Shown here: positions 5,079-64,000 of the stretch, piece after piece
How the letters are laid out: each line of letters starts with the position of its first letter
How positions within the stretch are numbered: the first letter of the stretch is position 1
Source of the DNA: Minutocellus sp. GHC0000111
Taxonomy: Eukaryota
NCBI GenBank assembly: GCA_977018835.1
Contig: OZ361258.1
Span: 3,100,001-3,164,000, forward strand
DNA length: 64,000 bases
Direction: 5' to 3'
Translations under genes and position numbers: made by a program
Notes under the pieces: model-generated
Told to the model about the DNA's origin: nothing
Seen by the model: the letters and a program-made list of their open reading frames with translations, nothing else
Database searches by the model: none

Positions 5079-5098
5079 TGCGCATTTTGGGACTAACA
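5079..5098. mobile_element. Orphan transposon terminus (TGCGCATTTTGGGACTAACA followed by TATA) of the Ginger-like family
   Basis: 20 bp identical to the termini at 6177, 14967, 19626 and 19815. The inner sequence diverges and no partner end is visible. Confidence 0.7.
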
Positions 5099-6177
5099 TA
5101 TATTTATCCCAGTTCGGAAACTGGGATCCCAGGCACAATCTCAGTTCGCAAACTGAGATCGATTGACAAATAATGAACACTTAGCAAGGATGATATCGCC
5201 TTTGCTTCTTTTCGCTTCATTTTTTCATTCGGCCAAAGAATGGAAAGCATCGTTATTTGCTCTGATCCCGGCGGCGGCGGTGACAATGGGGTAATGGCAA
5301 TGTTGATTTTGCTGACATTTGTATTGGCCACCGCCGCTTTTGTTATTGTTGCTTTTCGTTGATAATTTACATTTATTTTATGATGCACAGTGCAACTTTT
5401 ATTGTAGATAGATCTACCAGTGCATGCGCATGCATGCAATTTAGTTGATAAACGATTACGTAGATTCTACTTATACATGTACAAAATAATCATTCTGCAT
5501 GAGCCAACACCGGCAGCTACCATTCTGGTACTTGCCGAGAATGCCAGTTTCCAAACTGGTATTTATTATTGTTCCAGTTCGCAAACTCGTCTGGTTCCTA
5601 AATTCGGATTAGCTTATTTATCTCAGTTTCCATTCTGGTAGTATCAGTGCGCAAACTGAGATCCTATTTTGGGAACTGGGGCCTGCCGGTGTTGGCTCAT
5701 GCACAATGATTATGTACTGGTAGATCTATCTACAATACAAGTTGCACTGTGCATCATATCTTGAATTTGCAAGCTACATGTACTGGTACAGTAGCAACAT
5801 GATGCCGGCATAGCACAGATGCATGTACAGTTCATGACTTATATTTGCCAGAAGCAGCTAGCTAGATATTATTATTTATTCACTATATGTATTTAGTATC
5901 AGCTAATGCCAATTTATTGAGTATCAGCTCCGGCACTAATGTCGTCTGGACGTCTGGACCAGGTTTGGGCTGTGTTGCTTCACTATGAAAAAATGAAGCG
6001 AGGAGAAGCAAAGGCGATATCATCCATGCTAAATATTCATTATTTCTCGATTGATCCCAGTTTACAAACTGAGATTGTGCCTATGATCCCAGTTTCCAAA
6101 CTGGGATAAATAAATCCTAGTTCGCAAACTGGGATCCCAGTTCGCGAACTGGGACAGTGCGCATTTTGGGACTAACA
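5099..6177. mobile_element. Two non-autonomous deletion derivatives of the Ginger-like element joined tail-to-tail (+ ~5101-5683; - ~5684-6177)
   Basis: Patchwork of segments matching the full element (left subterminal region, ORF1 start and end, 3' subterminal region). 5684-6177 is nearly identical to ~19133-19626 and ends ...GGGACTAACA|TATATA. Confidence 0.85.
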
Positions 6178-7858
6178 TATATAACAACGTGCTCAAAAGA
6201 TACCTAGCTACAGCCATGTAGGTGCGATTTTTGACATCTTGCTTGACATGCATTATCGCACTCGTGCGTTGCGAAAAGAGGGGTTTCTATTTCTATATTC
6301 CCCCAAAAGAAAGGGGGGAGTGAGGCTGCCGATGCGGCCATGGCTGCCTCGCTCGGCTCTCGGTGGCCTCGGTGCCTTTCACGCGGCCGCACTCCGAACT
6401 TCGAAACTGCTAGCTGGCTGAGCAACCGCTGCTCCGACTCGACTCTTGCCCCGCGGAGCGTACGGCTACCTGCCGATTGGCCGACCGAGGGTGCTGGAGT
6501 GGGCTGACCTGTATCGATTTTGATTTATTTTTTTCAATTCATTCATTGATGGCCCCGAACTAACTTGGACGGCAACTCTCAAACCGGCGTCGGCGTGGGA
6601 CCGACTGCCTCTTCGACCCTGACCATCGAGATGGACGGCCCGCCAGCATCTGCCTCAACTGCTACCGCCTCGACCTTGACCGCTGCCTCTATGAACTCTC
6701 AGGATGCTGGGGCTGGCGGTGCCGCTGCCGCTGCTGCTCCCATGACAAAGAAGCGGACGTTCAGAAAGCGCAAGCGGCCGCGGGGGCAGTGGGGGTACGC
6801 CGCGAGCTCTACCGCCAGCAGCTCTACTAATACCGCCCAAGCCGTGCCGACTGCCGCCGCGAACGGTGCATCTACTACATGCATTGGAACCGGGAGGGCT
6901 ACCGCCGAGAATCCCGCCGTGGCTGCTGGTGTTAATGCTGGTGTTAATACTGGTGTGGGTGCCTCGTTGCTGCCAGCGGAAGGTAGTTTCGATCGGGCAG
7001 ACGACGACGACGACAATAATCATAACGACGGTGACGAGGAGGAGGAGATGCGAAAGGTTGGCAGCGAGCAGCCGGCGGCCGATGCTGTGGATACTGCTGC
7101 TGCTGCTGCTGCTGCTGTGGATGCTGCTGCTGCTGTGGATACGACTGCCGCTACCGGCGCTGCTGATACCGACGCTGGCACTGCCAGGAAGAATGGAGAC
7201 GGATCCGATTCCGGCGGCGGCAATGCCACCGTTGGCCGAACGGTGCCATCGTCTGTGCATGTAATGCGGGAGGAGGCGGGGCCAGTTCGTGTTGTGGAGA
7301 AGTCGGTGCTTCCCCCAGCAGCAGCATCTTTAGCAGCAGCATCGGCGGCACCAGCCGATCAGGAGGAGGGTTGGACCGCCATTGACGACGACGACGACGA
7401 TGGCAGGGCCGAGATAACGACCAAATCCAGGTCCGCTGCAACCGGCACCACCGCCGCCAATGCCACGACGATGACGGACGAGGAGTTCACCCGGCTGACC
7501 GGGCTGGCCATGCCGGCCCATCAGAATGCGACGGACGCAGCCGGGCACGTGGTGCCGCCGCTGTCCCAACCGGCGGCGGGATCGAGCCACGACTACGAGC
7601 CGAGGAACGAGGACGATGCCACGATGGGGGAGGACGAGAAGAAGAACAAGAAGAAGGACAACGGAGAGGGCGGTGGGGACGATGGCGATGGCACGGATGG
7701 GGCCGATATTGCCACTGCCAATGCTGCTGCTGGTCAGGACGAGGCAGCTGTAGCAGCAGGAAAGAAGCCCCAACCAACGGCAACGGCGCAGCAGCAGCAA
7801 CCACCACCACCACAACCACCAAGGAGACGACCCAGGTGGTACGAGGACTCATCAGATG
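6178..7858 (+). repeat. Arm 1 of a ~1.7 kb inverted duplication (partner 13274-14966)
   Basis: Reverse complement of 13274-14966. Visible differences are a 12-bp repeat-length change and one Tyr/His substitution. Confidence 0.95.
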
Positions 7859-13273: not shown

Positions 13274-14966
13274 CATCTGATGAGTCCTCGTGCCACCTGG
13301 GTCGTCTCCTTGGTGGTTGTGGTGGTGGTGGTTGCTGCTGCTGCGCCGTTGCCGTTGGTTGGGGCTTCTTTCCTGCTGCTACAGCTGCCTCGTCCTGACC
13401 AGCAGCAGCATTGGCAGTGGCAATATCGGCCCCATCCGTGCCATCGCCATCGTCCCCACCGCCCTCTCCGTTGTCCTTCTTCTTGTTCTTCTTCTCGTCC
13501 TCCCCCATCGTGGCATCGTCCTCGTTCCTCGGCTCGTAGTCGTGGCTCGATCCCGCCGCCGGTTGGGACAGCGGCGGCACCACGTGCCCGGCTGCGTCCG
13601 TCGCATTCTGATGGGCCGGCATGGCCAGCCCGGTCAGCCGGGTGAACTCCTCGTCCGTCATCGTCGTGGCATTGGCGGCGGTGGTGCCGGTTGCAGCGGA
13701 CCTGGATTTGGTCGTTATCTCGGCCCTGCCATCGTCGTCGTCGTCGTCAATGGCGGTCCAACCCTCCTCCTGATCGGCTGGTGCCGCCGATGCTGCTGCT
13801 AAAGATGCTGCTGCTGGGGGAAGCACCGACTTCTCCACAACACGAACTGGCCCCGCCTCCTCCCGCATTACATGCACAGACGATGGCACCGTTCGGCCAA
13901 CGGTGGCATTGCCGCCGCCGGAATCGGATCCGTCTCCATTCTTCCTGGCAGTGCCAGCGTCGGTATCAGCAGCGCCGGTAGCGGCAGTCGTATCCACAGC
14001 AGCAGCAGCATCCACAGCAGCAGCATCCACAGCAGCAGCAGCAGCAGCAGTATCCACAGCATCGGCCGCCGGCTGCTCGCTGCCAACCTTTCGCATCTCC
14101 TCCTCCTCGTCACCGTCGTTATGATTATTGTCGTCGTCGTCGTCTGCCCGATCGAAACTACCTTCCGCTGGCAGCAACGAGGCACCCACACCAGTATTAA
14201 CACCAGCATTAACACCAGCAGCCACGGCGGGATTCTCGGCGGTAGCCCTCCCGGTTCCAATGCATGTAGTAGATGCACCGTTCGCGGCGGCAGTCGGCAC
14301 GGCTTGGGCGGTATTAGTAGAGCTGCTGGCGGTAGAGCTCGCGGCGTACCCCCACTGCCCCCGCGGCCGCTTGCGCTTTCTGAACGTCCGCTTCTTTGTC
14401 ATGGGAGCAGCAGCGGCAGCGGCACCGCCAGCCCCAGCATCCTGAGAGTTCATAGAGGCAGCGGTCAAGGTCGAGGCGGTAGCAGTTGAGGCAGATGCTG
14501 GCGGGCCGTCCATCTCGATGGTCAGGGTCGAAGAGGCAGTCGGTCCCACGCCGACGCCGGTTTGAGAGTTGCCGTCCAAGTTAGTTCGGGGCCATCAATG
14601 AATGAATTGAAAAAAATAAATCAAAATCGATACAGGTCAGCCCACTCCAGCACCCTCGGTCGGCCAATCGGCAGGTAGCCGTACGCTCCGCGGGGCAAGA
14701 GTCGAGTCGGAGCAGCGGTTGCTCAGCCAGCTAGCAGTTTCGAAGTTCGGAGTGCGGCCGCGTGAAAGGCACCGAGGCCACCGAGAGCCGAGCGAGGCAG
14801 CCATGGCCGCATCGGCAGCCTCACTCCCCCCTTTCTTTTGGGGGAATATAGAAATAGAAACCCCTCTTTTCGCAACGCACGAGTGCGATAATGCATGTCA
14901 AGCAAGATGTCAAAAATCGCACCTACATGGCTGTAGCTAGGTATCTTTTGAGCACGTTGTTATATA
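13274..14966 (-). repeat. Arm 2 of the inverted duplication; carries the upstream region and N-terminal part of the Deltex gene as chimeric ORF 13200-14513
   Basis: ORF 13200-14579(-) matches ORF 6565 up to EDSSD and then reads into foreign sequence. Confidence 0.95.
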
Positions 14967-15142
14967 TGTTAGTCCCAAAATGCGCACTGTCCCAGTTCGC
15001 GAACTGGGATCCCAGTTTGGAAACTGGGATAAATGGCACAATCTCAGTTTGCAAACTGGGATCAATCGAGAAATAATGAATATTTAGCAAGGATGATGTC
15101 GCCTTTGCTTCTCCTCGCTTCATTTTTTCATTCAGCCAAAGA

Positions 15143-15766
15143 ATGGAAAACATCGTCATTTGCTCTGATCCCGGCGGCGGCTCGTGCCCTGCTGCCCACT
15201 GCGGCGGTGGCGACGACGGGGTAATGGCAATGTTGATTATGTTGACATTTGTATTGGCCGCCGCTCTTGTTGTTGTTGCTTTTTGTTGCTCGCTTCGTCC
15301 CGCCAGCCCCGCCAGCATCAACGGCGAGGACTATGAAAATGCCATGCTCAATGCCAGCGTGCCGACACTTGTTGCGGTGCAGAATCTTTACGCAAGTGCG
15401 AAACGTCGTGGCATCGCATTTGGTTCCGAGATGGAAGAAGCGGACCTTCTTCGCTCAAAATGCGGCATTGCGATAGCACGAGTAATGGCAAACATTCGTG
15501 ATGAAATGAATACAGATGCCATCCTGCTTTCTCCCTCCGACCTTCGAATTGAATTGAAGGCCGAGTTTGACGATGTTGATGACGCCTATGTGGCCGAGGC
15601 ATGGCGTGCCACCTTTGACGAAGTCCAAGATCCCTCAACTCCTCCTGCCTCAGACGATGATTTGAGCCACGCGAGCTCCGAAGATGAGCTCTCCGAGTAT
15701 GATAGTGAAGCAACACAGCCCAAACCTGGTCCAGACGATATTAGTTCTGGAGCTGATACTCCATAA
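15143..15766 (+). CDS. Transposon accessory ORF1: single hydrophobic segment plus acidic C-terminus, function unknown
   Basis: Intact 207-aa ATG ORF inside the TIRs. Diverged fragments recur at ~5239-5360 and at ~5915-5987 / ~19360-19435. Confidence 0.6.
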   Translation: MENIVICSDPGGGSCPAAHCGGGDDGVMAMLIMLTFVLAAALVVVAFCCSLRPASPASINGEDYENAMLNASVPTLVAVQNLYASAKRRGIAFGSEMEEADLLRSKCGIAIARVMANIRDEMNTDAILLSPSDLRIELKAEFDDVDDAYVAEAWRATFDEVQDPSTPPASDDDLSHASSEDELSEYDSEATQPKPGPDDISSGADTP

Positions 15767-16075
15767 ATTGGCATTAGCTGACACTAAATACATGTAGTGA
15801 ATAAATTTTAATATCTAGCTAGCTGCTGCTGGCAAATATAAGTCATACACTGTACATGCATCTGTGTTATGCCGGCATCATGCTGCTACTGTACAAGTAG
15901 TTTGCAAATTCAAGATGCGAGATGCTAGTTCGCAAATTTGCACTTCCAGTTTGCAAACTGAGACCTTCAAACAATCCCAGAATGCGCGCTGGCCACACAA
16001 ATTCATTTGACCGCCTAAAGTTCCCGCCCCGAATCAGAACTTTTGTCTTCGCTTCATTCAAAATTCACTTCCACC

Positions 16076-18602
16076 ATGGTAGTCACGTACGACGGCATCG
16101 CCGATCTAGCTGCCGAAAAGGAACGGCACAAGAAGGCCTTTGATGAAGCTGTGGAAGCGCAGCTGGAAAAACAGAAGGGGAGCGGAACCCTTCTCACAAA
16201 GGAGACTTTCGACAAGATTGTTGAGGCATGCAAGAAAAAGAAAACGCTTGACAAAGCTGCATTCAAAGACCTTTCGACACAGGAAGGGTACACCCAAGCA
16301 TACAAATGGGTCAAGAAATATGACTGCATCACTCTCGAGGATAAGGATGTACTCATTTTCATGCAGGAGGAAGGGGCGGCACTTGAGGATGCCATTCAAG
16401 TCTCCCACAGCGGCAGAGTCTTTGAGGACTTGCACGCGATTCACACAGAGAACAACGATCATCCCAAGGCCAGAACATTTAAAAATCGCGTCGTCAGCAA
16501 ATTCGGTAAAAGCATACCCGTTTGGCTTCAGAAAATATTCACAGATACTTGCCCAAGATGCATTGAGAAGGCTCGCCGTACAAAGCCTACTGCTGGGCAT
16601 CAGCCGATTATTACGAAAGGTTTCGGCGTGCGGGGCCAAGTGGATCTCATTGACTTTCAGAGCATGCCTGATGGGCCGTTCAATTTTTTGATGACGTACC
16701 AAGACCATGGCATCAAGATATGCCACCTGACACCAATCGTTCGCAAGAGAGCATCATGTGTTGCATATGCCTTGCTAGAGATATTCACCCTTCTTGGACC
16801 GCCGGCGATATTGCAGTCCGATAATGGCAGAGAGTTTAGCAACGCTGCAACGGCATCAGGAGGCCGATTCGTTGAGCTCGATGATGAGGTAAGACATTGT
16901 TGTGTTCATCTTTTGACATCTTGAGCACATATTGCGCACAAATCTCACTTCACCCTTTTTCCATCCCCTTACCGCTTGCGCTACTACCGCTTCGAATGCG
17001 CCAGTTCCTCGACGAAGTCATTAGTGAAATCAAGAAGCTGTGGCCAGAATGTCTTATGGTCAAGGGCTCTCCCCGCCGAAAAGAGGCGAACGGAGGCATT
17101 GAGCGATTGAACCAGACCGTCGAGAACAAGATCGGGACAATCCTCAAAGACCATGGGTCCAAGAAATGGGCCACACTCTGCAAATTGGTTCAATGGCGCG
17201 TCAACACACAGCAGCACAGTAGCGTGAAGGCCATGCCATACCAGCTATTGACTGGTCAAAGACCGAGGGTAGGAATATCTGGTCTCCCCATTGCCAAGGA
17301 GCTGTTGGAAACGCTTACCACCGAGGCAGCGCTCAACCGCATCCTTCACATTCCGGAGGATGGGCGAATCGAAGACAGCACAATAAATCTTGCTTCTGGG
17401 GCTACGTGCTCTGCCGATTCGGCCGAAGACGAGGAGGAGAACGAGTTGCCTCCACTGCCAATGCCGGCGGTAGAGGTTGGTGCAGGCGGAACTATGACAA
17501 TTGTCGCCGCCGCGACGACGACGACGACGACGACGAGGAGATGCATGATAACAATAATGATGACGACTGCGCTGCTGGCCGCGATGCGTCATCACGCCAG
17601 CAGTCGCGCGCCGGCGCCGCCAGCGGCAGCAGGCCTACTAGTACCGATGGCACCAGTATCGGGAACAAACGCAAGCGCGGTAGTACTCCAGCACCAGTGA
17701 AAACAACGAAGTGGCTTGAGCTCGTTGGAGATTTCAAGAGGATAAGACTCCTGAAAACGTTTGGGCTCGATGACCTGAAGGACACAGGCATCAGAGAAAT
17801 GATCCCCGTAGAAGATTGCGACGATCTCGCTACCAATGAATGGCGCCAAAGCATACTTGTGAGGGTGAAAAAGGACTTGTGGGAAATACGCGCGCAGGAT
17901 GGCACTTCGGTGCTCGATACCGTCGCCGGTACCGGGGACCATGGCCTTTACAATGAGTGGGGCTCGTACTATCGGATGCCAAGCCAAGACAGCATATTTG
18001 CAGCAGAGGATGAAGCAGAGAAACAAGCGAGCGCCGAAGCCGATGGTGATGAGCGCATAATGGAAAGTCCTGGGCGCAGAAGTCTGAGGTCGGCAGCGCA
18101 TCAGAATCTGACGAAGCAAGCCGATACAATGAAGAGAAGAGCGAAAGATGTTGCAGGTGATGTCAAAGTTGGCAGCATCGTGCACGTACCGCTAGATGAT
18201 GTCGACTCAACCAAAGTAGATGGGAAAAACATAACTGCAGTTGTCGTGGAGATAGTTCGGTCTAGTGAAAAAGCGCCGCCACGATACAGAGTTGCTGTGA
18301 AGAATGGAGTTCTGAGCACAATGCAACCGAGGCATGGCATGACTCTAGTGAAAACAGCGACACCAGAGTTGATGGGCCTCCAAGAGACACTTGGCTCGTG
18401 GGCGGGCTTACCTTCGATTACTTTTCGTGAAGCAGCAAGGGGCGCTTCGACCGTTGGAGGCCAAGGCGTAACGAAATGCAATTGCAATGGCAAATGTGAT
18501 TCAAACCGGTGTTCTTGTTACAAGGCCGGCCGAGTATGCAACTCAAGATGTCATCGAGGAAATAGCAAGTGCAAAAACCACGATGACTGCAATGAACGAT
18601 GA
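16076..18602 (+). CDS. Integrase-like transposase (KRBA2/SCAND3-related)
   Basis: HHCC zinc motif (IH...DH...CPRC), DDE motifs RGQVDLID, ILQSDNGREF and NGGIERLN, PYQLLTG, and C-terminal CNC...C...RCSC.KAG..CNSRCH. Intron 16889-17004. One frameshift at ~17512. Confidence 0.9.
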
Positions 18603-18982
18603 CTAGGTGTACATGTTGTACTTCCCATCTCCTGAGTATGTCAATGTGATGAAACGACTACACGCATGTAGAAAATTGTTATACATGTAGATAACAACTT
18701 ATAGTTTACATTTATTTCATGATGCACAGTGCAACTAGTATTGTAGATAGATCTACCAGTACACGTACAAAATAATCATTGTGCATGAGCCAACACCAGC
18801 AGTTACCATTCTGGCACTTGCCGAGAATACCAGTTTGGAAACTGGTATTTATTATTGTTCCAGTTCGCGAACTCGTCTGGTTCCCAAATTCGGATTAGCT
18901 TATTTATCTCAGTTTCCATTCTGGTAGTATCAGTGCGCAAACTGAGATCCTATTTTGGGAACTGGGGCCCAGTGCGCAAACT

Positions 18983-19626
18983 AGGATCTCAGTTTGCGCA
19001 CTGATACTACCAGAATGGAAACTGAGATAAACACGCCAATCCGAATTTGGGAACCAGACGAGTTCGCGAACTGGAACAAAAATGAATACCAGTTTGGAAA
19101 CTGGCATTCTCGGCAAGTGTCAGAATGGTAACTGCTGGTGTTGGCTCATGCACAATGATTATGTACTGGTAGATCTATCTACAATACAAGTTGCACTGTG
19201 CATCATATCTTGAATTTGCAAGCTACATGTACTGGTACAGTAGCAACATGATGCCGGCATAGCACAGATGCATGTACAGTTCATGACTTATATTTGCCAG
19301 AAGCAGCTAGCTAGATATTATTATTTATTCACTATATGTATTTAGTATCAGCTAATGCCAATTTATTGAGTATCAGCTCCGGCACTAATGTCGTCTGGAC
19401 GTCTGGACCAGGTTTGGGCTGTGTTGCTTCACTATGAAAAAATGAAGCGAGGAGAAGCAAAGGCGATATCATCCATGCTAAATATTCATTATTTCTCGAT
19501 TGATCCCAGTTTGCAAACTGAGATTGTGCCTATGATCCCAGTTTCCAAACTGGGATAAATAAATCCTAGTTCGCAAACTGGGATCCCAGTTCGCGAACTG
19601 GGACAGTGCGCATTTTGGGACTAACA
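18983..19626 (-). mobile_element. Inverted non-autonomous derivative embedded at the right end of the full element
   Basis: Reverse-complement matches to 18719-18951, ~15703-15916 and ~14967-15131. Ends in the family TIR followed by (TA)n. Confidence 0.85.
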
Positions 19627-21001
19627 TATATATATATGACCGTTGGGATTCGTTCCAACGATTTTTTAACTCGCCTACTAGTGACATTCTTTGCTGATTT
19701 GTAATATATAGTTTGGGAACTGGGGCCCAGTGCGCAAACTGGGATAAATGAATCTCAGTTCGCAAACTGGGATCCCAGTTCGCGAACTGGGACAGTGCGC
19801 ATTTTGGGACTAACATATATATTCTTACTACGTTTGAAGAAGACAAGCAGACTGGACACGCGTCTTAGTAGAATGGTAGATCTGGTTTATCTCAACAGCA
19901 ATCTCTGCTTAGTAATTTTAAAATCCTTTCTCTGTACTGTTAGGTTGAAAGTGCGCACATCACATGTGTGTAAAATATGCATGTACATGCATGATCTCAT
20001 TGGATCATATCAAAAGAGAGATCAATTATATTCGTACAAAATGTGTCAACGAGGAGGTGTGAGGAAAGAAAAGACACTGCGAGTGCGTGACGTGCCTACT
20101 GTTCGGCCTTCTTCGTCAATCTTCTCTCGTGGACACAGTTATCTTCCGAAGTCTCCCGGCCCTGATGTGCTTGTCCATCATGCGTCCTTCGATTCTATCC
20201 AATACATCCGTGCACTCATCATCATTTTCTTCAATATCGTCTATGTCACCAAGCACTGTGAGTAAGTCCCGAAAGTGCAGAAGGGGAGATACCTCGACGG
20301 ATATCGCAGCTGCATGCGGACGAGGGGAGTTGTCGTGAAGCTTCCCAAAGTAGGATGGACGTGAATCGGTCATTCTTCGAATGGAGGCTACAGATGAGCT
20401 GAGTCAATGTGAAGTCAAAATGGAGACTACAGATGAGTTGAGTAATGAGATAGCTTGGTAAAAGTTGCTTCTTTGGTATTCGTTTGCCTCGATGAGATAC
20501 TCTGCAGCGTCGGTCGAAGTGTTCCCTCAAATTTATTTTCAACATATTCTTTCGGTGATCGATGAAATTGATCATCACAACAAAGGTGATGCCCAATTGA
20601 TGTCGAAGGCAAATCAATTTCAGAAGGAAAAGTGTCGTAGACTCCAAGCTCGTCGTTGCAGAGGAGGCCGACGACCTGCCGCCTCAGTGCAATTGGTAAA
20701 GATCGAAGATTCATGACAATTACACGCCAAAAACGCACTAAGCAAGAATTGTTCTCAGATAGATATATACTAGTATTAGTATTAGGGATTTATTTAGAAA
20801 GATCTTCAACGAACAATTTCTTTGGCTACTAAATGTACGTATCCAGTAGACTGTACGACGCCGTGCCGATTCATCGCAATGGCACAGGGCACATACGATC
20901 GTATCTGAATACTAGCTAGCTAGAGATGATGAAAAGGTCCGCCATCTCATGTTGGCCTCCACCTTATGCGAAATAATTCATCCAGCTCCCTAGCAAACAA
21001 T

Positions 21002-25060: not shown

Positions 25061-26511
25061 ATGCCACCGATGCAAGTGAGTTCGCTCGTGGAAAAAGACG
25101 GTGAAAGTGATGACGAAACTGTTTCCACACACCAGTCGTTCAAACGTGTGAAGAAGTCAGAATGCAAGTCAATGGTTGAGGAATGCAAATGTTCTATAAG
25201 CCGTAAGCTTCCCATTGAGCCTGTGATGGCATCAGATGTAAGTCAAGAAAGATCGTACGTGATGTAAATCTCTCCAGCCGTACACAATTCTAACTGATTA
25301 CTGATTCGACTCTAATTGTCTCTAATAGTTCACAGGGAAGAATTTATGAACCGATGGAGATCGAGGATTACATCAAGAAACGAGGCGATGATATCATTTC
25401 TCCTTGCACGAAACAAAAAATAAGCAAGGAGCTATACCCTGCGCCATCAGTCCTCAAGAACATTGAGGCTGGAATTGCTGCGGGCGTTTATACTGGTGAG
25501 CCCGCTGAGGAATGGACTCGACGCAGAGAAGTGAAAAGGCACGTTGACCATGTCATCAAACTGGCTGAAGCAGGCGATGTGAAGATGATGAAATTGCTCG
25601 GAGAGTCTTACCAAAAGGGCTTGAATGAGCTGCCGAAGGACGATGCCAAGGCTCGAGAATGGTTTGATAGAGTAAATAGGGCAAAAATCCAAAAGCTGAG
25701 GGACAGAGCCAAGGAGGGAGATGGAGAGGCAATGCGTCTGCTTGGTTGCGCTTACGAAGAAAAAGAATTTGGGCTTGAGCGTGATTTGGCCGAAGCTTAC
25801 CGCTGGTACGAAAAGGCTTCAATGGCAGGAGATATAATTGGTTCCTTTTTTCTTGGATATCATCAAATCTTTGGATCAGGCGCCAATAAAAATCCTGAAA
25901 GTGGTCTCCTTCTTCTGTTGTCCGCGGCAACCGATGACCAGCCCGTCGACAGTGCTTGCTACATTTTAGGCATAATCTACTACAAAGGCCTTTCAGGGAG
26001 AACAATAAAAAGTCCAAAGCAGGCCAAGTACTGGTTCGAAAAGGCGCTTGAGATAGACGGCAGTGAAAATCGAAGCGGCTATCTCAAAGAGAGAGAAAGG
26101 CGCTATGCTCAACGTTGTCTTGAAACGTTGAACGGACCCCATGCCGATACAGGGTCGGTCGTTGTCCAACCCGCATCTAATGCTTCGGTTGATACCTCCA
26201 AGTCGTCCAGTGCATCTACTGGAGCATCGTCGTTTTCCCCAAACGCCACTGCTTCGGCTTCGGCCACATCTAACAAACCCATGACCAGGAGGGTTGTCAG
26301 GACCAGTGGCCGGAAGCGTCCGAGGAGAGATATTAATTACAACGACAAGGACGGAGACAAGCCGTTGGAAGTGATTCTACGGGCCTACCAAAACGACCGT
26401 CCCGCTCCGAAACGAAACAAGGCTCTGGTCACTGACTCGGACGATGATGAATGTGATAATGTGATGGTGTGGTGCGGTGAGATGGTGAGTTGTTTGCTGA
26501 CGATAAATTGA
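25061..26511 (+). CDS. U-box plus Sel1-repeat protein
   Basis: CSISRKLPIEPVMASD|GRIYE...SPCT (U-box split by intron 25238-25335). Sel1 repeats GDVKMMKLLG and AYRWYEKAS. Confidence 0.85.
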
Positions 26512-26792: not shown

Positions 26793-27899
26793 ATGAGTCG
26801 TTCCAAGCGGATCAAGCTATCAGACTGCGAGAGTACATTGGAAGAATATGTTTGCCCGATAAGCTACAACATTCCGGTCAAGCCTGTGATGGCTTCGGAT
26901 GTGAGTCCATGCAATCGGAAATGCAGAATGATTCATTTTCTGCATTTTTTAAACATTATCGTAAAAATCCCACCTTTTGTGCCTCCTCCATTTGCCCTGG
27001 TGCATCCTTTATTATCGTAGGGGAAGATATACGAGGAGAAAGAGATAAAATAATACATCAAACGACAAGGCAGCAATATCATTTCTCCGTGCACCAGAAA
27101 ACTGATGAAAAAGGACGTGTTCCCAGCTTTGTTTGTTCTCAACAATGTCGAGAAAATGATTGATGCAGGGCTCTACGACGGGGAGTTAGTCAGAACATGG
27201 ACGAAGCGTATGGAGATGAAAAAAGATGTTGAAGAAGCTAAGAAAAAATCCAAGGAAGGTGATGTAGAGGCCATGCGTAGCCTTGGTGATTGGTACAAGG
27301 ATGGCGTCAATGAACTGCCAAGGGATGAAGAAGAAGCGACGCATTGGCATAACAAGGCAGAAGTGACAGAAACGAAGAATCTAGCAATCAGTGGCGACAG
27401 CGATGCCATGTTTGGCTATGCCCGAATATTTTTTCAAGGAGTAAAGGGCATTGATAGAGACTATGGCGAAGCATACCGATGGTTTCAGAAGGCAGCAGAT
27501 GCCGGGTGTGCCACAAGCTTGGCCGTTATCGGAAAGTATTACAAAATCCATGGAGCAGGTGAATTAATGAGCAAGAACATCAATAGCGGCCTCGCTCTCA
27601 TAGCGTCAGCTGCAAGGGATGAATCAGATTTTGCTTGTTATTTACTCGGCGAATGTTTCTATAAGTCCTTGTATGGTATTGAGAAAGATAATCAGCAGGC
27701 CAAAAAATGGCTCAAGCTGGCGGTCGGAGATGGCGAGCAAACTCTCAAGCAATGCAGTCTGCACGAAAGCAGTACCTTTATTACACAAGCGCGCGCTTGG
27801 CTACGTGAGATCGATGAGGATGGCGATGGCGATGACGGTGCCGAGCCCGAGGCCGAAGCAGAAGCAGTGGAGGAACTATTGCTTCTAGAGGAGGAGTGA
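26793..27899 (+). CDS. Tandem paralog of the U-box plus Sel1 gene, with a premature stop (possible pseudogene)
   Basis: CPISYNIPVKPVMASD|GKIYE with the intron at the same position (26901-27020). In-frame TAA at 27051-27053. Sel1 repeats follow. Confidence 0.8.
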
Positions 27900-54289: not shown

Positions 54290-56029
54290 ATGAATACTTT
54301 AGTAGGAGCCTTCCCGGCTGGTCGGCAATCGCCTTCCTTAAAAATGCGACAGAAGAAAAGGCGACGAGATGCGGATGCGGCTGATTCAGATGCAGATTAT
54401 GATGCTCAACGGACCGCCGCAGCAAGCACCGTTGGCTGCAACCACAGATTATCACGGCATACAGCGGCAGCGCATGCGCTGCTTCTGCTGCTATCGGCCA
54501 ATCTCATGTTTGGAATTGATGCATTTTCGCATGAGAGTGCATTGCAAAGAAATAATTTCGGAAGAGCAACATGTGATGTGCCAACTTTTTGTCAGAACGA
54601 TGCAAATGGCCCTGCAGCAGGAGCTTTCTCGAATACCATAAGATACCACCGATCTGGAGCAGCAATGATTCAACTTTCAGCCAGCCGTGAGAGGACGGAT
54701 ACGTCATCTTCCAGCTCCGCTAACTCCTCTTCTTCGTCATCCTGGCGATTCGGCGTTCGGAAGCGAGTCAAGTCCGTCATCCAAAAGGCCAAGAGCCGCA
54801 AGATTGCCAAGGCGGCCAGAGCGGAGGCAGCGGTGGCCGAGGCGGAGATACAGCACATTATTGAGGAAGACGACAAACTGTTTGAGGAAACGAAAGGCAA
54901 GAGCGAGGACAATGACGATATAAACGGTGAAATCGACATTGAAATCCAAGGTGCCTTGCCTGAAACTGAGGAAAAGGTCGAGGAGGTCAACGGCGCTGCT
55001 GCTGTCGCGCAAGCTGAGAAAGAAACGGATACTGATGGTGATACTGAGATCGCATCGTCATCGTCGCCACTAGTTGAGGAAGATGCCGTACAAGTAACTG
55101 ATGAAAGCGCTGATAGTGAGTCGCAATCGGCATCACCGTCAAAGGAAGAAGAAGTTACCTCGGCAACAAAAACTCCCGAGGATGCTAACGACAAAAAAGA
55201 TGACGACGACGAAGTAGCAAATGCAGAACCCCTTCCGTTTGAGCTGCCAAAGCTTACCGATGAGCAGCAGCGACAGCTTGATATGGGCGAGCGAGTCCAG
55301 TTCCAGAACGATATGGGACGAGAGGGATCGGGTTTTGTAGTGCTGGACGTCAAGGCACCGCCGGATGTGGTGTGGGAATGTCTGCTGGACTTTCAATCGT
55401 ATCCAGAGACCATCCCCACCGTCCGTGAGGTGACCATGTATACCAACACGCATCTATCGGGTGATTACCGCTCCGAGAAGCCCGTGGCATTCGAGGATGG
55501 GACCATGGCAACCCTTGCTCATGGTATTCCCAGCGTCACGCGAGCGGCCTTTACTCTGTCGAAATTCCGTCTCAAGATCGCAGCCATTCATCGCTATACT
55601 CCTCATCCCGTTGGAGATTACATGGTATTTACGCTGGATCCTGCGTGTACCAACTTGGTCCTCAAGGATGCCAAGGGCATCTGGCACACTCAAAGCAACC
55701 CTGACAACAAGGGCGAAGTAAGTTCGGTCGAGGAGGGCCAGAATTATCATTATCATAGGATGTCCCGACACGAACTAATTTTCTCAACTCACCATGATAT
55801 GCTGTCACGTTTTGCCAAATCCATCATACACATTTTTTTCTACTTCCAACAGGAATACACACGAGTATGGCTCCTTTGTGAGGTGAAGGTTTCCAAGCTG
55901 CTACCACAGTGGATTACGGACTACGCCGCGAGAAGAGCGATGCCGCGTGCTACTACGTGGCTCCGACCGCAAGTAGAAGCTGCGAATGCTCTCTGGTTAA
56001 GTAAAAAGAGACGGCGGAGGAAAAATTAA
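54290..56029 (+). CDS. START/SRPBCC (polyketide cyclase/COQ10-like) domain protein
   Basis: DVKAPPDVVWECLLDFQSYPETIPTV and LPQWITDYAARRAMPRATTWL. In-frame intron 55718-55852. Confidence 0.75.
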   Translation: MNTLVGAFPAGRQSPSLKMRQKKRRRDADAADSDADYDAQRTAAASTVGCNHRLSRHTAAAHALLLLLSANLMFGIDAFSHESALQRNNFGRATCDVPTFCQNDANGPAAGAFSNTIRYHRSGAAMIQLSASRERTDTSSSSSANSSSSSSWRFGVRKRVKSVIQKAKSRKIAKAARAEAAVAEAEIQHIIEEDDKLFEETKGKSEDNDDINGEIDIEIQGALPETEEKVEEVNGAAAVAQAEKETDTDGDTEIASSSSPLVEEDAVQVTDESADSESQSASPSKEEEVTSATKTPEDANDKKDDDDEVANAEPLPFELPKLTDEQQRQLDMGERVQFQNDMGREGSGFVVLDVKAPPDVVWECLLDFQSYPETIPTVREVTMYTNTHLSGDYRSEKPVAFEDGTMATLAHGIPSVTRAAFTLSKFRLKIAAIHRYTPHPVGDYMVFTLDPACTNLVLKDAKGIWHTQSNPDNKGEVSSVEEGQNYHYHRMSRHELIFSTHHDMLSRFAKSIIHIFFYFQQEYTRVWLLCEVKVSKLLPQWITDYAARRAMPRATTWLRPQVEAANALWLSKKRRRRKN

Positions 56030-56588
56030 GAAAGTTCTATTAAGAGTAAAAACTATAAGCTAAGTGAAGGATCTTGATCAGACTCTTTTGTAGAAGTTGC
56101 CTTTATTTTTGTATCAGCAAATGCATCGTAGACTTCAAAGTAACAAATTAGAAATCACAAGTAGTAAATCCCCCGCAAATGAAAGCATTATACTGCGTAG
56201 CATGCTTGAGGTAGGTGCACAACACCATTGCCTCTATTCTTCAAAAGGACCGCAGGAAGTGCCCGTGAGTAAACGATCGAGGTACAAGTACCAGTGTGTT
56301 TGTATGCCAAAAAAATAATCCATGACGACGGAATGCTGACTTGCTTCATCGGGGCAAGATGGTAATGTCCACATCATGCAATTACAAGTGCCGGTCAGTG
56401 GGCGACCACGGACGACCATATATACATCGAGGACATAATCGTCGAACTCTTGTGGAAAATACAACTGAAGGCCTTCTGCTTTTGTTTCTTTCGAATACGA
56501 TCGTACATTAATGATTCATAAAATACAAAAGTGCCGTTTGCTAAGTATAGAGATATTCTTTTTTTATTCTAACCACAAACCACGCACT

Positions 56589-57444
56589 TTAGATGACACC
56601 GACCCGGTTGGCAACATCGAGGGCATCGAAATCCTTGGAAAGACGGACGTAGGCCTTCTTGAGTCCACGGGGGGTGATGAGGGTGTTGACCTTGTCACAC
56701 TCGATGCTGTAGAGGTCCTTGACGGCGGCCTTGATCTGTCGCTTGTTGGACTTGATGTCGACGATGAACACGAGGGTGTTGGAGTCCTCGATGAGCTTCA
56801 TGGACGATTCGGTGGTGAGGGGGTACTTGATGATGGAGAACTTGTCGAGGGTGTTCTTCTTGGGGGTGGATCGGGGGGCGTACTTGGGCTTGCGGGCGAG
56901 GGTGTGGGGGCGGTAGAAGTGGACCTTGGTGTGAATTCTGGTGCCCTTCTTGGAGATGCCCTTCTTGAGGCCCTTGGAGACGGCTGCTGCCTTGGCTGAA
57001 GTTGGAATGGGGAAGGTGACATATAAAGAAAGTGATACGTGAGATGTGATTGAGATATGAAAAATGAAAGGTCGACGCATACCGTCGACACCGTCGTCGA
57101 CATGAGAAAAACTGTCGTCCGATCGCGCTGTGGCCGTCCACTCTCCGCTCGAAAAACTTTGCAGATATGAATCGCTGACCAATATGCCTCTCATCAGTAA
57201 CATCCACTACCTGTTGCTTGGTCATGATCCTATCATCTCAGCTTGTTTCCTACCGCCGCTTCGCTGTGCGTCGTCCTGTCCTGCCAGAGGCGTCGCCGTC
57301 AAAAGCAAAAGAAGCATACGAACACAGCACGTGCTGTTCTTTTCTCTCGCGCGCCGACTTGAACCGAATACCGCCCCAAGCCCGACCAGCAACAGCACCG
57401 ACTGTATCGCCGATCAGCATGTAGCACCACATGCCTTTGCTCAT
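56589..57444 (-). CDS. RPL23A: 60S ribosomal protein L23a (uL23)
   Basis: [41 protein letters not shown] and ALDVANRVG. Exon 2 is 56589-56995; proposed exon 1 is 57435-57444. Confidence 0.95.
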
Positions 57445-58349
57445 CTCTTCTTCTCAGCTTCAGTATTATCACCAACGAAACGACAGGTCCGTTCCGGCTG
57501 GCTCGTCTCGAAATCACCGGAGGTCCGGAGATAACCCAACAGTCGACCGTCGAAACGCGGCCATAAATGGCGCGAACTGCCCGCCGCAACGCCACCGCCG
57601 ACAGATACCATTACTCTCCCGCCGTCCCATGCGCTTGTTTGTATCAGGTGAACTCACATCCTGCCATGGTTGCTCAGAGAATAGTCGATACGTCTGGGTT
57701 GCCTTCGTGGTGAAGTGGAGAAACAGCGGTGGTAATTTTTACTCATTACCCATTTACTTCACTTTTCAGCGTTCGAAAATAAAGTCTTAGCACCAAAATC
57801 AAGGTGTTTGGTTTTGACGTTAAAAATAAGTGCGAGTGACGATGACACATCGAACACAGTGCCTCGCGGTAAATGAAACTTCTTAGACGGGTTTGAGGGA
57901 ATTTAAAACTAACTACTGAGAGAGAGAGAGACAGGCTCTGGGAGCCGGTACTGTAAGCTGACTTAGCAATTGCAATGGCAGCAATCGCAGATGGTTGTGG
58001 CTTGGTCAGTTGAGACGACGAGAGGAGGCGAAGAAGGTGGTGGTCAGCAGAAAAACTGGGCACTACAGGAATGCAGTTTTAGTGCCTGCTGCTAACCACC
58101 GTCGCCAGCTCATCCCCACCGTGCGGCACCCACAACGATGACACATCGAACACAGTACCTCCCTCCGCTGATTCTCCCAACTCTATGCAACTTAGTAGAG
58201 AACATGAAATGCAGTTTAACTAACTAACTGCTACGTGAATTGAACTGGAGCTGGCATTGGCGGCAAATGAAACTTCTTTTAGAGGGTGAGGTCCCTCTCC
58301 CCCTCCTCCTTTCCGCAGCACAGATCGGCCAACAATGTGTGTCGTGCTT

Positions 58350-59659
58350 AGGTGAACAGGGCGAAGGGGGGCATTGGAGTCCCGAAGCCGGCATTTCGGC
58401 CAATCAATGCTGCTGTTGATGCCGGCGAAGAAGGATTGGCGGCAATTTGGGGTCCTTGGGTCTTCGCGATGGCTCGTTGAGTGTGCGTGGGGCACGTTGA
58501 AGAAGGAGCCTCGTTGGATCATGCGTGTGGAGACTCCGGATGTAAATTCTTGGACCTGGCGACGGATGCACTTGAGGAAGGCGTCACTGGACCACCGCCC
58601 TGCCAGCATGATTGTGTGCGTGTGTGGGAACATCATTTAGACACATTGCCATGTTGCTGCTCCGCTGCGAATGGAGTGTGATCCGAATTCATTCAGAGGG
58701 ATGGCAGCCCAGGACGTCCTCTCCAATCACTGTGGCCGACGCTCGGATCTTGTCAACTATTTGGGTGGCAGGAATGTGTTTTAACACGCCGTTGACCGAC
58801 CACGAAGGCACTTTGCCGGCGTGTCGCTGTTGGTGCTAGGGTGCCGTAGGACTCGTTTCACCAGGGCAGCCCAAGCTCGAACTGGGCAGAGGGTGGCGTC
58901 GTGGGTGCAGTGTTGCTGCGCAATCGTGACGTCACGCTCGTCGTTCTTCTGGAACTCAAAGGTGACGGAGACAGAGTCTGCTGAGAGGAGGGACCGGTCG
59001 TTGTGACACATGCGCCGTCGGCCGCGGCAGAGCTGGATGTTGCGGAGGCGGAGCAGCTTGGTCCTGCGCTCACCGCTGACTCTGGAGCATTCGCAAGACC
59101 TCATCGCGAAGAAGAAGAGGCGCCGACGGCTAGTTGCCCGACTGCACGGTCCTCTTCCGTTTCCCTGACGGAGGCGATCTCTCGGAGGAGCCGGCAGGTG
59201 ATCGCCTTCTCCGGCCGCTCGGCCGGGTCGGACTGGCTGTGTCCTCGGAACTGCCGCTGCAAGTAGAAGGAATGAAGGCTGGCCGATGTCGTCTTTCCCT
59301 GGGTCCCTGCGCTGGTTGTGCCGGAAGGACGAGCATGCATGTGAGACGGTGTCTCGTCGGACTGTCGACGCAGCCAGTCGCGAAAACTTTGGCCCCGAAA
59401 AGCTGGCCTGTCGGACGGCATGGGCAAAGGCGCCGAGAGTGACTGTTCGGTCTCGGGGTGACACCTTGTCGAGGAAGACGTCGTCCCCGGTCCCGATGAG
59501 CTGCAGGAACTCAGTCCAGCGGCTCCACGCGAGAGCGTGCTTCTCGGCAGTGGCCGTTGTGACTGCTTCCTGACGGGCAGCGTCCGCGCCTGCGAGACAA
59601 TCCAGGAAGCAATCTCGTTGGGCAGTGGTGCAATCCTGAAATTTGAGGGAAGCTGACAT
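58350..59659 (-). pseudogene. Tyrosine recombinase of the retroelement (inactivated)
   Basis: FFFAMRSCE, FEFQKND, LCPVRAWA, HSIRSGAA and IMLAGRWSSDAFLK(C)IRRQV. Confidence 0.88.
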
Positions 59660-61800
59660 TCGGGAGATGACAGAAGCAATTTCGTGAGGTCAGCATCAGA
59701 GAGATCGGCATCACGAGAAAGAGAATCGGCCTCCGGATTGCGCTTCCCCTGGAACCACTGTGAGCACAGCATGGTGTTGGTCTCGATGAGCATGTCGGCT
59801 AGTTTCCGCGCCGTGGCCAGCTTGACCGCTACGTCGGCATCCTTCTCGCCGTGAGACACACGAAGTTCGACTTCCTGAGCCATCCCTCGGCCGTGGTGCT
59901 GTCGGTCCCCGACAGTGCGCAGGAGGAGAGGGTTGGTAGGTTGCCCTCGATGTGGTCGATCCATGGGCCGATGACAGCGGCGAGGAGTTCCAGGTAGTTG
60001 AGGGTGAACCGGCCCCATGGCTCCTCGGGGAGGGCAAATCTCCACGCTCTGCCGGATGAGGACCATCCGCCGATGCCGTGCTCGCAGGCGCCACTCATGT
60101 GCTCGTGGGTGGGGCAACGGCACGTGAGGAGGTTCATGCTCATGCCATCGGCGGCCCTTCGGAGGAAGCGGAGCCATGGGTTGAGGTCTTCTGCATCCTC
60201 AGAGTCGAACCGTTGGCGGCCGTGGTGGCGGGCCTTCCAGAGCCGATCCCGAAGGCGGCTGAGGAAGTGAGTGTCGTGCGGCTGGAATGATGTGTGTCCG
60301 ACGTGGTTTAGCCTTCCGACCAAGGTGTCCAGCTCTGATCTGGTGGCGCTGCGGGCTCTGAGGAGCCGAAGCATGTCATCGCGCCAGGCCAGGTGCTTGC
60401 TCCAAGGGAGCCTCAGCAGGAGCCGCCGGGCATCAGCATCCCACCCCAAGAGACACAGCACTTCGGAAGGCGTCCCCTCGGCGAGCAGCTTCTTGATGGA
60501 GGCAAGGTCATCTCTGGGCAGTGGCTCGCTGTCGGATGCCGGTCGGCCAAGCGCGTGGATGGCGAGGAGGGTGGCAGCGGATGTCCGATCCTTGTTGTCG
60601 TCGCCCAGGTCAGGGGCTGCGGCGATGAGGTCATCGATGCACGGCTCGACGATGCCATCCTTGTTGTCGGGAAGGGTTGCGATCATGTCCAGGGCCGGCG
60701 CGAACGGCACATCGTCGCCCTCCACCTTGGGGCGACCCAAGTGCTTCTGCTGGGGGCCATGGAGCTCTGACGGGTCCCAGTCCGAGCATTGCAGGAGGGC
60801 CCTGGCCAGGTCGGCCGCCGATTCGGACACATTGCACCACTCGCTCGGGCAAGGGCGGCCGCTGAAAGTCAGCCGGAGGGACATGAGGGCAATGCCATCC
60901 AGGGTGGTGATCGTTTTGACGGCCGTGCTGGGAGCCAAGTGGGCCCGGCGACACGCAGCCTTGAAATCGACCTTCTGCAGGAGGATGGGAGTGCGGGGAT
61001 GCTTGTGACGGGCGGGCATGGCCGAACACCACTGGCTGGTGGTCCTCCATGCGCACTCTGTTGTTGACGGACCGTGCGGCACCGATCTCGAAGGATTGGT
61101 CGTGAGTCAGGCGGTCCTTGGGCATGATCTCGCCAGCCTCGCTGATCGTGTTCTGTGCCACCAAACCCATCGGAGCCACCTCCGCTCCAGGAGTGAGGGG
61201 CGCGACCTTTGCTGACAGAGGGAGGGCGAAACCGCGGGTCACGTCGTCGAGAACTTGGTCCTTGAGTGCCTCCGGCCTGTCCCTGGCCGATTTGTGGTTG
61301 CCTTGGCCGATGTTCTTTATCACGCTGTCCAGTCTGCTTTCGTCGCTCACCGGATCGAGGGCCCAGTCGGATCCACTGTCGAGAATGGAGCGGAAGCGGG
61401 GCCACAGCGGGTGCCGGCCAAGAATCGGCTCCAGAAGACTCAGGTCTCTGAACTCCGATCCCGGTTGGAGTGGCGACCCGCCCTGCGCCTCGAGTGCCCT
61501 GCTCTCAGAGAGCGATCGTGTTTCTTGAGGACCGACCAATTGTGAGCGGCGGCCTCCGTCAAGAGCTCAAATCTGAACTCCGTGGGCTTCGGTGTGGCCG
61601 ACGGGGACTCGACTGCTCGTCGGACGTGCTGTGCCAAGGTGGAAACATCGAAGATGGGCTCTAGTTCCCACGTGGAATTGCATGCAAGGCGAGAAAAAGG
61701 TGAGATGTGCACATGCTGCACGTTCACGAGCATGCGGGTCTGTCCGACCGTGGTGGGCCCATTGTGGGCGCTGGGCTGCCCCGTTTGTTGTGGGTGTTTC
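59650..61800 (-). pseudogene. Reverse transcriptase / RNase H of the retroelement (inactivated)
   Basis: GNHKSA, RLTHDQSF, DFKAA(C)RR, RLTFSGRPCP, (C)IDD, LGW, LVGRLNH, NYLELLA, TDSTTAEGWL and G..N.EADSLSRD. Confidence 0.88.
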
Positions 61801-62380
61801 TTCACCTGTTGGTCTCACTTGCCATTTTGGCGCATCGGTTCTGCTTCCTTGCTGTGCGCAGGGGAACCAGGGGGAGACTGTGCTTCGGGTTGGGGCTGCT
61901 TGCCTAGGAGATCCTTCTCTCGCTGGCCTAGCCGGTCGAAGAGGTTGTCGGTGGCTTCCGCACCGCCAGCGTTAGTGGTGCTGGAGCCAGAGCCTGAGAT
62001 GCTGTTGTCGGCGCAGGCATCACCGCTGGTGTTAGGGGACCAGGACCCGACCGAAGGTCACTGCTAACGCCTCGGCCTTCTGCTCCGGTGTTAGGGGCAC
62101 CGGAGAGCCTGGATTGGTTGCTGATGTCGTTGCGACCGCACACGCCGAATTTTGGGGTGCCGGATGACCTTGGGCGGCTGGAGCCACCGGGGCGGATCGA
62201 CGCCGACGCATCTGGCTGTGCACTCGACGGCGCTTGGAGGGACGAGCTCGGCCGGCTGGCCGAGATGTTTCTCCAGCATCCTCCGAGGGTGGGCCACGCC
62301 TCCGTGCCCACCCGATCCGTCATTCCTCCGCCTCCTCGCACTTCCGATCGCATTTCTCGACGTGCTGCTCGACGGGTCCT

Positions 62381-63993
62381 CTATGCCTTAAGAGGCCTCT
62401 TGACATGCGACTTCTTGAGCTTGCACGAGGATCCGGCGCCGCAGACACCCATCAGGATGAGTGGAGGGCAGAACTTACAGCCATTAATTTCAGGTCTGTC
62501 CTCATAGGGCTCGGACTTCTTGCCATGCCGTTTTGCAAAGTTGCCGGGGTTGATGTCGAACGTGACGAAGTGTTCGCACTGGTGGGCTCTGCCGCTGGCG
62601 CCGCCCGTCTTTTGCTTCTTTTTCGGACTGGTTCTTGGCTCTGATTTGTCGGAGTCGGAATCCGAGGAAGGGGTGGGAGCGTCGGCCGATTGGACGAGCT
62701 TGATGTGGCTGGGGTAGACGAAAGGACTCTGAGTCTTCATCATCTTTTTGGACTCGTCGGCCATTGAGAAGCAAGAGAGGTCGTTGCCGGCGTCGTCGGG
62801 GGAACGGAGACAAGCTTTCCAGAACGCATGGATGGAGGCGTCGATGTTGTGGAACATTGCCAGCCAGAACTTCTCGCCATGGCTCTCGGCGATGTCGCGG
62901 TGCTGGTCCTCGTGTGTCTTCATGTGACTGAGGACCCTGGCGACGCAGCGAGCGGGCTCGGAATCCTCTCCGGCAAGGAAGGAAATGCCAGCGCCGAAGG
63001 CCGAGATGTGACGTTTGGCACCGTCGTGCTCGGTTGGGGACCGGCAGTTCTGCTTCAGAAGAGCCTTCACCTGAGTCGAGGCATGTCCTTTCTTTTGAGA
63101 GGCGGCGAGGCACAGGGGCGCATTGCTGCTGCTGGAGTTTGCCGGGCTAAAGGCGAAGACAGAGAAGCCATCGTAGATTTTCTTGTCGCTCTTCCCGAAG
63201 CCAAAGAGGCGGACGTAAGTGGTGAGGCCCTGGAGAGATGTCCTGACTCCGGTCTTGCCCTTTACATGGAGCTCGAGGCCGACGGCTGCTTGCGTGAGGT
63301 TTGACTCTTCCAGCAGTGCTTTCAATCCTTCGGGAAGATTCGAGTCGATCGCTGCTACATCATCGTCATGCTCGGTCGAGACCCGGCAGAAAGCGGCACA
63401 GGCCTTGAGGATGGCGCCATTCATCGAGTGCTTCTTGTCGACCTTGTCAGTGTAGGCCATGACTGCGCCGGTGAGGGAGGATGCTTCGGACGCGGCCCTA
63501 GTCATGGCGTTGGCCGCGGTGGTAACTGCAGAGTCGGTTGGGGCGCCACCGGCTGGTGGTCCGTCGCCACTGGCGCCAGTGATGTGCCGAGCGTGCATCT
63601 CACGGGCGTGTGTCTTGAGAGCTGGGTCCGTCGTTGGGTGCAAGCTGACGGCCGGGATGTCACCTTGCTCGGACGTGGCGACGAACCACAGCCACTTGAC
63701 GACGTGTTGAATGGCCTCGTTGGAGCGAAGACCTGCTGCGCCATGACCCCCTCGTCGTCACCGCTGTCTGATGCGTCGTCGCTGCCGGCGTCCTCATCCA
63801 GCCGACGTTTGATGGCGGACAGGATGGCCCAAGGCGATGCCTCGTGCTCTTCCAGAACATTCTGCAGAATCGAAGGTGGCAGCAGCACAAGGGACTTAAA
63901 CTTCGTGGAGGCACTCCGGTGGCGGGTGTTGGAGCCTTCCTGGGTGAGACCGGTTAGGGCGGCTTCTGACGGTGCCCCCAGCATGGCTTCCAC
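62381..63993 (-). pseudogene. gag-like ORF of the retroelement
   Basis: Lies upstream of RT and ends in a CCCH-like motif (FC......G.C....C....SH). Frameshifted near 63700. Confidence 0.6.
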
Positions 63994-64000
63994 CGATGGG

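Follow-up and report, generated by a model that had tools for sequence, protein, structure and literature searches.

Context-Specific A:T to G:C Hypermutation of a Putative Tyrosine-Recombinase Retrotransposon Family in the Diatom Minutocellus

TA Depletion of a Dead Retrotransposon Copy

A dead copy of a multi-copy retrotransposon, probably of the tyrosine-recombinase (YR) type and the DIRS order, is present on the reverse strand, at positions 57839..64000, of a stretch of DNA from the diatom Minutocellus sp. GHC0000111 (assembly GCA_977018835.1, contig OZ361258.1, positions 3,100,001 to 3,164,000). This whole stretch of 64,000 nucleotides is called the window here, and the 5′ end of the element lies beyond it. 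There is very little doubt that the retrotransposon family has undergone a real, context-specific A:T to G:C hypermutation. Within this window, the hypermutation is confined to the retrotransposon, and the host genes are normal.

Between 58350 and 64000, 37 TA steps are left and rho(TA) is 0.18, versus 0.61 for positions 1-57800 of the window and 0.51 for a Ginger-like element copy in it. After training on 7.5 kb of host sequence with matched GC, a Markov model predicts a mean of 107 TA steps for the element, with a minimum of 72 in 2000 runs. A TA-free gap of at least 1009 was found in 0/2000 of these runs, the longest simulated gap being 650. Direct counting agrees with a first-pass annotation, made from the DNA alone, that TA is absent from 60311..61317 (1007 bases) and from 59266..59799 (534 bases). 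The extent given there, 58350..62300, is indeed depleted but too narrow, as the depletion runs from approximately 57840 to the window end at 64000. It includes ORF1 (62381..63757, reverse strand), which has a rho(TA) of 0.25. The rho(CG) of the element is 0.91.

The depletion is reflected in the encoded proteins. The pol ORF (59263..61706, reverse strand), encoding reverse transcriptase (RT) and a presumed RNase H, is interrupted by frameshifts and has lost approximately 30 nt, between short microhomologies, near 61014. The putative tyrosine recombinase ORF (58351..59659, reverse strand), which overlaps the end of pol, is broken by frameshifts as well. As annotated, there is one Tyr in the RT ORF and none in the YR ORF, but these counts take in stretches that the frameshifts put out of frame, and the RT ORF measures 425 aa from stop to stop. 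Nine other ORFs of the window (seven host, two Ginger) contain 1.0-4.8% Tyr, so that the neighboring host genes and the Ginger copy are normal, as had been claimed.

Across 80 related loci, rho(TA) is 0.35-0.83 and the share of RTAY (R, purine; Y, pyrimidine) among TA steps is 16-42%; in nine related loci with a GC content of at least 54%, rho(TA) is 0.40-0.72. The search patterns by which these control loci were collected require Tyr, so the loci show native composition and not the frequency of hypermutated relatives.

Tyrosine as the Ancestral Residue

The Cys codons of the motifs CIDD, DFKAAC, FLKCIR and RSCEC, proposed in the first-pass annotation to replace Tyr, are present where it placed them, and intact relatives do have Tyr where these copies have Cys or His. 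One such relative is P0108, a protein from a short contig that clusters at 90% with the sister copies. At its 11 Tyr positions, the 228 observations in sister proteins from long contigs are divided into 96 His, 74 Cys, 57 Tyr and 1 Gln; four proteins from short contigs were excluded. Cys or His account for 170/171 of the replacements, the remaining one being Gln, and no Arg, Phe, Ser, Asn or Asp was found at these 11 positions among the sisters. This restriction to Cys and His, with one Gln, implies that each TA underwent a single transition, on one strand or the other. The presence of Tyr in the intact relative, where the sisters have Cys or His, points to mutation rather than to native sequence or CpG decay. 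The sister data are proteins, not DNA, and include a few duplicate rows (P0004/P0062, P0009/P0089).

The first residue of the RT motif YxDD (codon 60639..60641, reverse strand), Cys in the window, is Cys in 6 and His in 25 of 31 sister proteins. In distant relatives it is Tyr (25) or Phe (5), which speaks against Cys or His being native at this position. The likely catalytic Tyr codon of the recombinase (58568..58570, reverse strand) is also Cys in the window; 13 sisters have His (5), Cys (3) or Tyr (5) there, and short-read contigs have TA. Among the polymorphisms common to at least two copies, 60/72 are derivable from TA, compared to 20% of possible transitions.

Short-read contigs were compared with the window over 56000-64000, with 40 of 101 substitution rows covered. 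In four runs, 91-96% of the window differences listed are transitions. The 30 best-supported differing sites consist of 10 CA versus TG, 7 TA versus TG/CA, 7 CG versus TG/CA, 5 AAY versus AGY and one site of another kind. In run X1, the longest of the flank contigs show 0 differences from the window. Contigs of an Illumina PCR library are among those showing CA versus TG at the sites, which argues against a base-calling artefact, an explanation the first-pass annotation had raised against itself.

P0108, P0492 and P0481, all from short ENA contigs of other samples, are intact or near-intact close relatives. Their existence suggests that unhit, possibly active lineages persist.

The TAY Context

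The surviving TA steps are skewed in their context, with RTAY representing 0/37 and YTAR 19/37. The corresponding RTAY/YTAR shares are 34%/14% in host DNA, 40%/13% in Ginger and 30%/18% in GC-matched relatives (chi-square, p 3e-11 versus host and 9e-8 versus GC-matched relatives). RTAY is a TAY target on both strands, YTAR on neither. TA steps are thus the target, as first proposed, but the motif is TAY rather than TpA, TAR being far less hit.

The same rule is visible in the codons. Tyr codons after a purine are Tyr 13, Cys 127 and His 114, and those after a pyrimidine Tyr 24, Cys 20 and His 2 (p 5e-4 for His versus Cys, p 6e-14 for retention). This split by the preceding base is predicted by a TAY rule acting on each strand. 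Counting against it, some of the 19 codon sites were picked by Cys/His polymorphism, which is partly circular; the test on the 11 Tyr of P0108 avoids this. Among 31 balanced sites, RTAY accounts for 25 and YTAR for 0.

Rare alleles extend the motif. A-to-G changes occur per 1000 at 10.5 for AAY, 8.7 for CAY, 1.1 for GAY, 0.8 for AAR, 0 for CAR and 0.9 for GAR, with a background of 1.0 per 1000 for other changes. AAY and CAY therefore constitute a weaker second tier, approximately 10 times above AAR, CAR, GAY and GAR (the counts are small, with 7 and 4 events). TAR sites are disfavored but not immune (3 rare hits per 84 chances). The spectrum is concentrated at TAY and is not context-free.

The terminal repeats of the element, with a rho(TA) of 0.66, were initially considered to be spared. 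This was dropped, as 11/20 TAs there belong to the resistant YTAR class (p 2e-4).

Strands, Linkage and Timing

Both strands are hit within one copy, as the first-pass annotation had concluded: at 19 sites, the window copy has Cys 10, His 8 and Tyr 1. All four gametes are found in 151/173 site pairs across the sister proteins, and p<0.05 is reached in 3/173. The mean pairwise difference between copies is 0.42, versus 0.41 under independence, and strand coordination is absent for sites less than 100 nt apart (r 0.05). In addition, the two members of each terminal repeat pair of the window copy are distinguished by a single base, in both cases a TAY hit. Unlinked, strand-mixed hits together with TAY differences between an element's own terminal repeats fit an action after insertion. 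The copies were likely mutated one by one after insertion, in a distributive manner.

Small insertions form a second signature. Extra tandem insertions of 1-3 nt are located at window positions 58430, 58655, 59118, 59354, 59859 and 60597, and sister copies have them too; most of 11 single-residue insertions in the sisters copy a neighboring residue. The additional bases of the window at 59354 and 60597 are missing from the read contigs. Overall short-tandem-repeat density gave no separation of the element from controls, so the signature rests on alignments. One possible source of the insertions and of the deletion near 61014 is nicking of these elements or their error-prone repair.

Hit and Unhit Repeats

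The first-pass annotation had described the process as repeat-targeted, a reversal of repeat-induced point mutation (RIP). This is not supported in that form, as other repeats of the window are unhit and a known target of a similar process, discussed below, is single-copy. Normal RTAY shares are kept in three MITE-like blocks, in the Ginger copy and in a 1.9-kb inverted duplication that is 97.5% identical; neither this duplication nor a 501-bp repeat of 99.6% identity is depleted in TA. Repetition is therefore not sufficient, and this argues against homology sensing of the RIP kind. One might guess that chromatin or small-RNA state directs the hits.

Between in-window repeat copies, transversions make up 89/204 differences (overlapping pairs counted repeatedly), and T[A/G] is the commonest transition class, with 43/105 single transitions. 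These repeats may thus be weakly affected, although they are not depleted.

Outside the retrotransposon family, only P0348 has the full signature among approximately 260 YR proteins. This protein, encoded on an ENA contig of 5167 bases, belongs to a different YR family, has 0 Tyr in 402 aa and has Cys at conserved Tyr positions.

Possible Mechanisms

The TAY changes were perhaps a little more probably than otherwise made by a putative DNA adenine deaminase of the host that has the TadA/ADAT2 fold. Such an enzyme would deaminate A to inosine in inserted copies, which are likely silenced, and G would become fixed there at replication. Each TA would receive one hit, because the first hit destroys the site. 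The enzyme would act on chromosomal DNA after insertion, would be directed there by chromatin or small-RNA state and not by repeat pairing, and would serve in defence of the host. The near-pure A-to-G spectrum, with the 5′ preference T >> A, C > G and a 3′ pyrimidine, matches TadA-type deaminases acting on DNA. The TadA-derived editor ABE7.10 is reported to rank TA>CA>AA>GA and to prefer TAC like its parent TadA (PMC8065034), and a YAY motif is given for ABE3.1 (10.1101/2024.11.23.624961). In amphioxus, ADAT2 is described as deaminating A in DNA (PMC10354150).

Several points weigh against this deaminase. Wild-type E. coli TadA is reported to do no DNA editing (PMC9880001), and the natural DNA-active enzyme BjADAT2 to favor GAA and TCG, not TAY (PMC10354150). 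For ABE7.10, the effect of the 3′ base is described as smaller than that of the 5′ base (PMC8065034), while it is strong here. A-to-G at TAY and T-to-C at RTA would look the same in sequence. The short tandem duplications of each copy are not explained by deamination alone. Some palindromic GTAC sites have uneven products (Cys 6 : His 25 at 60641; 15:4 at 60122), and the wider context or a common ancestry must therefore contribute. Lastly, gene conversion between copies could erase linkage in a similar way as independent hits.

Rather unlikely, although the first alternative to consider, is an error-prone polymerase of the pol eta or iota type, which would insert G opposite T, and generate short duplications, during repair synthesis of silenced elements. 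The frequent 1-3 nt tandem insertions and the microhomology-flanked deletion fit such a polymerase, and the AA-to-AG second tier, with 5/30 of the top sites, is reminiscent of the WA hotspot known from somatic hypermutation (PMC6423074). However, there is no transversion at the ancestral Tyr codons, where all replacements but the single Gln are Cys or His. Polymerases of this type also produce transversions. Moreover, hits at CAY and AAY are similarly frequent and AAR escapes them, which is not the WA pattern.

Less likely again is a thymine lesion, in which the T of RTA would be modified, e.g., by TET/JBP-type oxidation, or a modified adenine would be processed alike. The modified thymine would then mispair with G. 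T-to-C at RTA equals A-to-G at TAY seen from the other strand, and pure transitions fit. The graded 5′ preference with its 3′ pyrimidine nevertheless matches the measured preferences of TadA-type enzymes.

Slightly less probable than a thymine lesion is editing during retrotransposition, by which RNA (through an ADAR-like enzyme) or single-stranded cDNA, and not the inserted copy, would be the substrate. DIRS-1 is reported to replicate via single-stranded cDNA (PMC7192593), and the DNA transposon-type elements of the window are unhit, which fits. Against it, the strands are mixed in each copy without coordination, the hits show no shared descent, and an element's own terminal repeats differ at TAY sites. 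ADAR is furthermore described as preferring UAG (PMC10661471), a context disfavored here, and in the chlorarachniophyte Bigelowiella natans comparable hits are reported in integrated DNA (10.64898/2026.01.13.699255).

CpG decay of a methylated element, which yields TG and CA, is a very remote candidate for the main cause and is ruled out as such by the Tyr ancestors: the ancestral residue is Tyr (TA), not Arg, and CG is hardly depleted. It is a real but minor second process, given the seven CG versus TG/CA sites among the top 30 read-contig differences and a rare C-to-T rate of 5.3 per 1000 at CG, versus 0.9-1.6 elsewhere; loss of DNMT5 in a diatom is reported to abolish methylation and de-repress transposons (PMC9998398). 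Equally remote are native composition (overlapping frames, high GC) and a long-read base-calling artefact; pol and YR do overlap and coding DNA here is generally TA-poor (rho about 0.6), but the intact relatives and the short-read contigs rule out both.

Relation to Known Systems

The first-pass annotation knew of no described mechanism. Mettrop et al., however, describe the same spectrum, i.e., de novo TpA to TpG/CpA hypermutation, in two integrated viral regions of B. natans (10.64898/2026.01.13.699255). According to the available text of this preprint, TpA-depleted coding sequences of B. natans are enriched for RT and DDE domains, the nucleocytoplasmic large DNA virus (NCLDV) target is single-copy, and the ongoing de novo mutation is approximately 1000 times above background. 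The authors compare the process with RIP and propose ADAT2, the enzyme being unproven, and this text mentions neither diatoms nor a trinucleotide motif (10.64898/2026.01.13.699255).

As far as the preprint text goes, both systems hit TpA on both strands by A-to-G/T-to-C, in foreign or mobile DNA, in our case in this window. They differ in host, as B. natans belongs to the Rhizaria and the diatom to the Stramenopiles, and in target, which is partly hit viral inserts in the former and a multi-copy retrotransposon near saturation in the latter. Furthermore, TpA is the only context given for B. natans, whereas a TAY rule with a weaker AAY/CAY tier applies here. No report of TpA hypermutation in a diatom was found among the matches listed in literature searches. 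New here are the diatom lineage, the near-saturation of a retrotransposon family, the TAY rule, the independent hits and the case against simple repeat sensing.

Fungal RIP is alike in that context-specific transitions destroy chromosomal mobile DNA. Its polarity is opposite, with C-to-T changes (CpA to TpA) compared to A:T to G:C (TA to TG/CA) here, and it acts on any long near-identical duplication, whereas such duplications in the window are unhit. RIP involves cytosine-methyltransferase-like enzymes and takes place in the sexual stage. ADAR and APOBEC attacks on retroelements resemble the present case as deaminase-type attacks with a neighbor preference. ADAR, as far as described in the sources consulted, acts on double-stranded RNA at UAG, on one strand per transcript, while here TAG survives best and the strands are mixed. 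APOBEC converts C to U on single-stranded DNA, in contrast to A-to-G on both strands here. It leaves one-strand tracts. The A-to-I chemistry of TadA/ADAT2 and of TadA-derived editors would give pure A-to-G, and the TAC/YAY preference is alike, but natural TadA edits tRNA and, from what is reported of it, natural DNA-active BjADAT2 differs in its preferred motifs.

A tentative extension, with the balance of judgment somewhat against it, is that diatoms and chlorarachniophytes share a natural TAY-motif DNA adenine deaminase system, a genomic adenine base editor that permanently kills silenced retroelements and viral inserts. If true, APOBEC and RIP would have a SAR-wide counterpart on the adenine side. 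An adenine deaminase that naturally works on chromosomes would be of consequence for the defence of eukaryotic genomes and for the design of base editors. A phenomenon so far reported from one rhizarian alga now extends to another lineage that is distant from it. With TAY as the motif, the enzyme hunt narrows to TadA-like chemistry, and the loss of RTAY with retention of YTAR provides a simple genome-wide marker. As hit elements lose Tyr and gain GC, annotation and divergence dating will be misled.

Structure of the Element and Other Features of the Window

Contigs unique to the flank stop at approximately 57830-57880, at the 3′ boundary of the element. A likely 3′ split-direct-repeat end (B1-A2-B2) lies at 57839..58278 on the reverse strand, where two short repeat pairs are found (57839-57865/58135-58161 and 57866-57884/58260-58278). 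The depth of read contigs, which is not a copy-number measure, is higher over 57869-58135. Ngaro-, PAT- and VIPER-like elements are described as having A1...B1-A2-B2 ends (PMC6681497). The present element is similar to these members of the DIRS order in having ORF1, RT/RNase H and a putative YR in overlapping frames, and probably also in its ends. Of these ends, the window, which does not reach the 5′ side, shows the 3′ B repeats; they correspond to those of the relative L018, which has clear split direct repeats A1...B1-A2-B2. Complete relatives of approximately 6.5 kb (L049, L050, L056, L062, L075 and L078) have identical ends of 110-150 bp or a permuted ORF order, a pattern expected from the assembly of circles or tandem arrays.

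ORF1 is gag-like by position only, with a Cys/His cluster at its C-terminus; relatives are ordered ORF1-pol-YR. The RT assignment is based on a predicted structure (pLDDT 79), of which the best fold matches are the retroviral-type RTs of foamy virus, MMLV and CaMV (E 3e-7). Pfam searches gave no match for eight element ORFs, including ORF1, and no RT family among 32 pol proteins, and a PDB sequence search using the pol alignment gave 0 matches. The recombinase ORF has a weak Phage_integrase match in relatives (E 0.04-0.07) and a weak match to Cre across the His-x-x-Arg...Tyr box (E 0.24), and the motif order fits Cre. The sister proteins sit on 32 other contigs of more than 100 kb, which presumably belong to the same assembly as the window.

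A neighboring RPL23a gene has its closest named homologues in Ditylum, Trieres and Eucampia (87-89%), which identifies the host as a diatom. Other mobile sequences are present in the window. The Ginger-like integrase element, located on the forward strand (16019-18599), has normal TA and Tyr and this copy is apparently unhit. The 1.9-kb inverted duplication (5985-7858 and 13274-15131; 7 mismatches) contains a host-like low-complexity ORF and starts in MITE-like ends; it is possibly a transposon-captured fragment. The MITE-like family (5079-6186, 14961-15916 and 18719-19824) has nested palindromic repeats, among them a near-perfect hairpin of 488 bp at 18719-19206. Lastly, two adjoining paralogous ORFs (25294-26508 and 27054-27896) appear by eye to combine a U-box with Sel1-like repeats.

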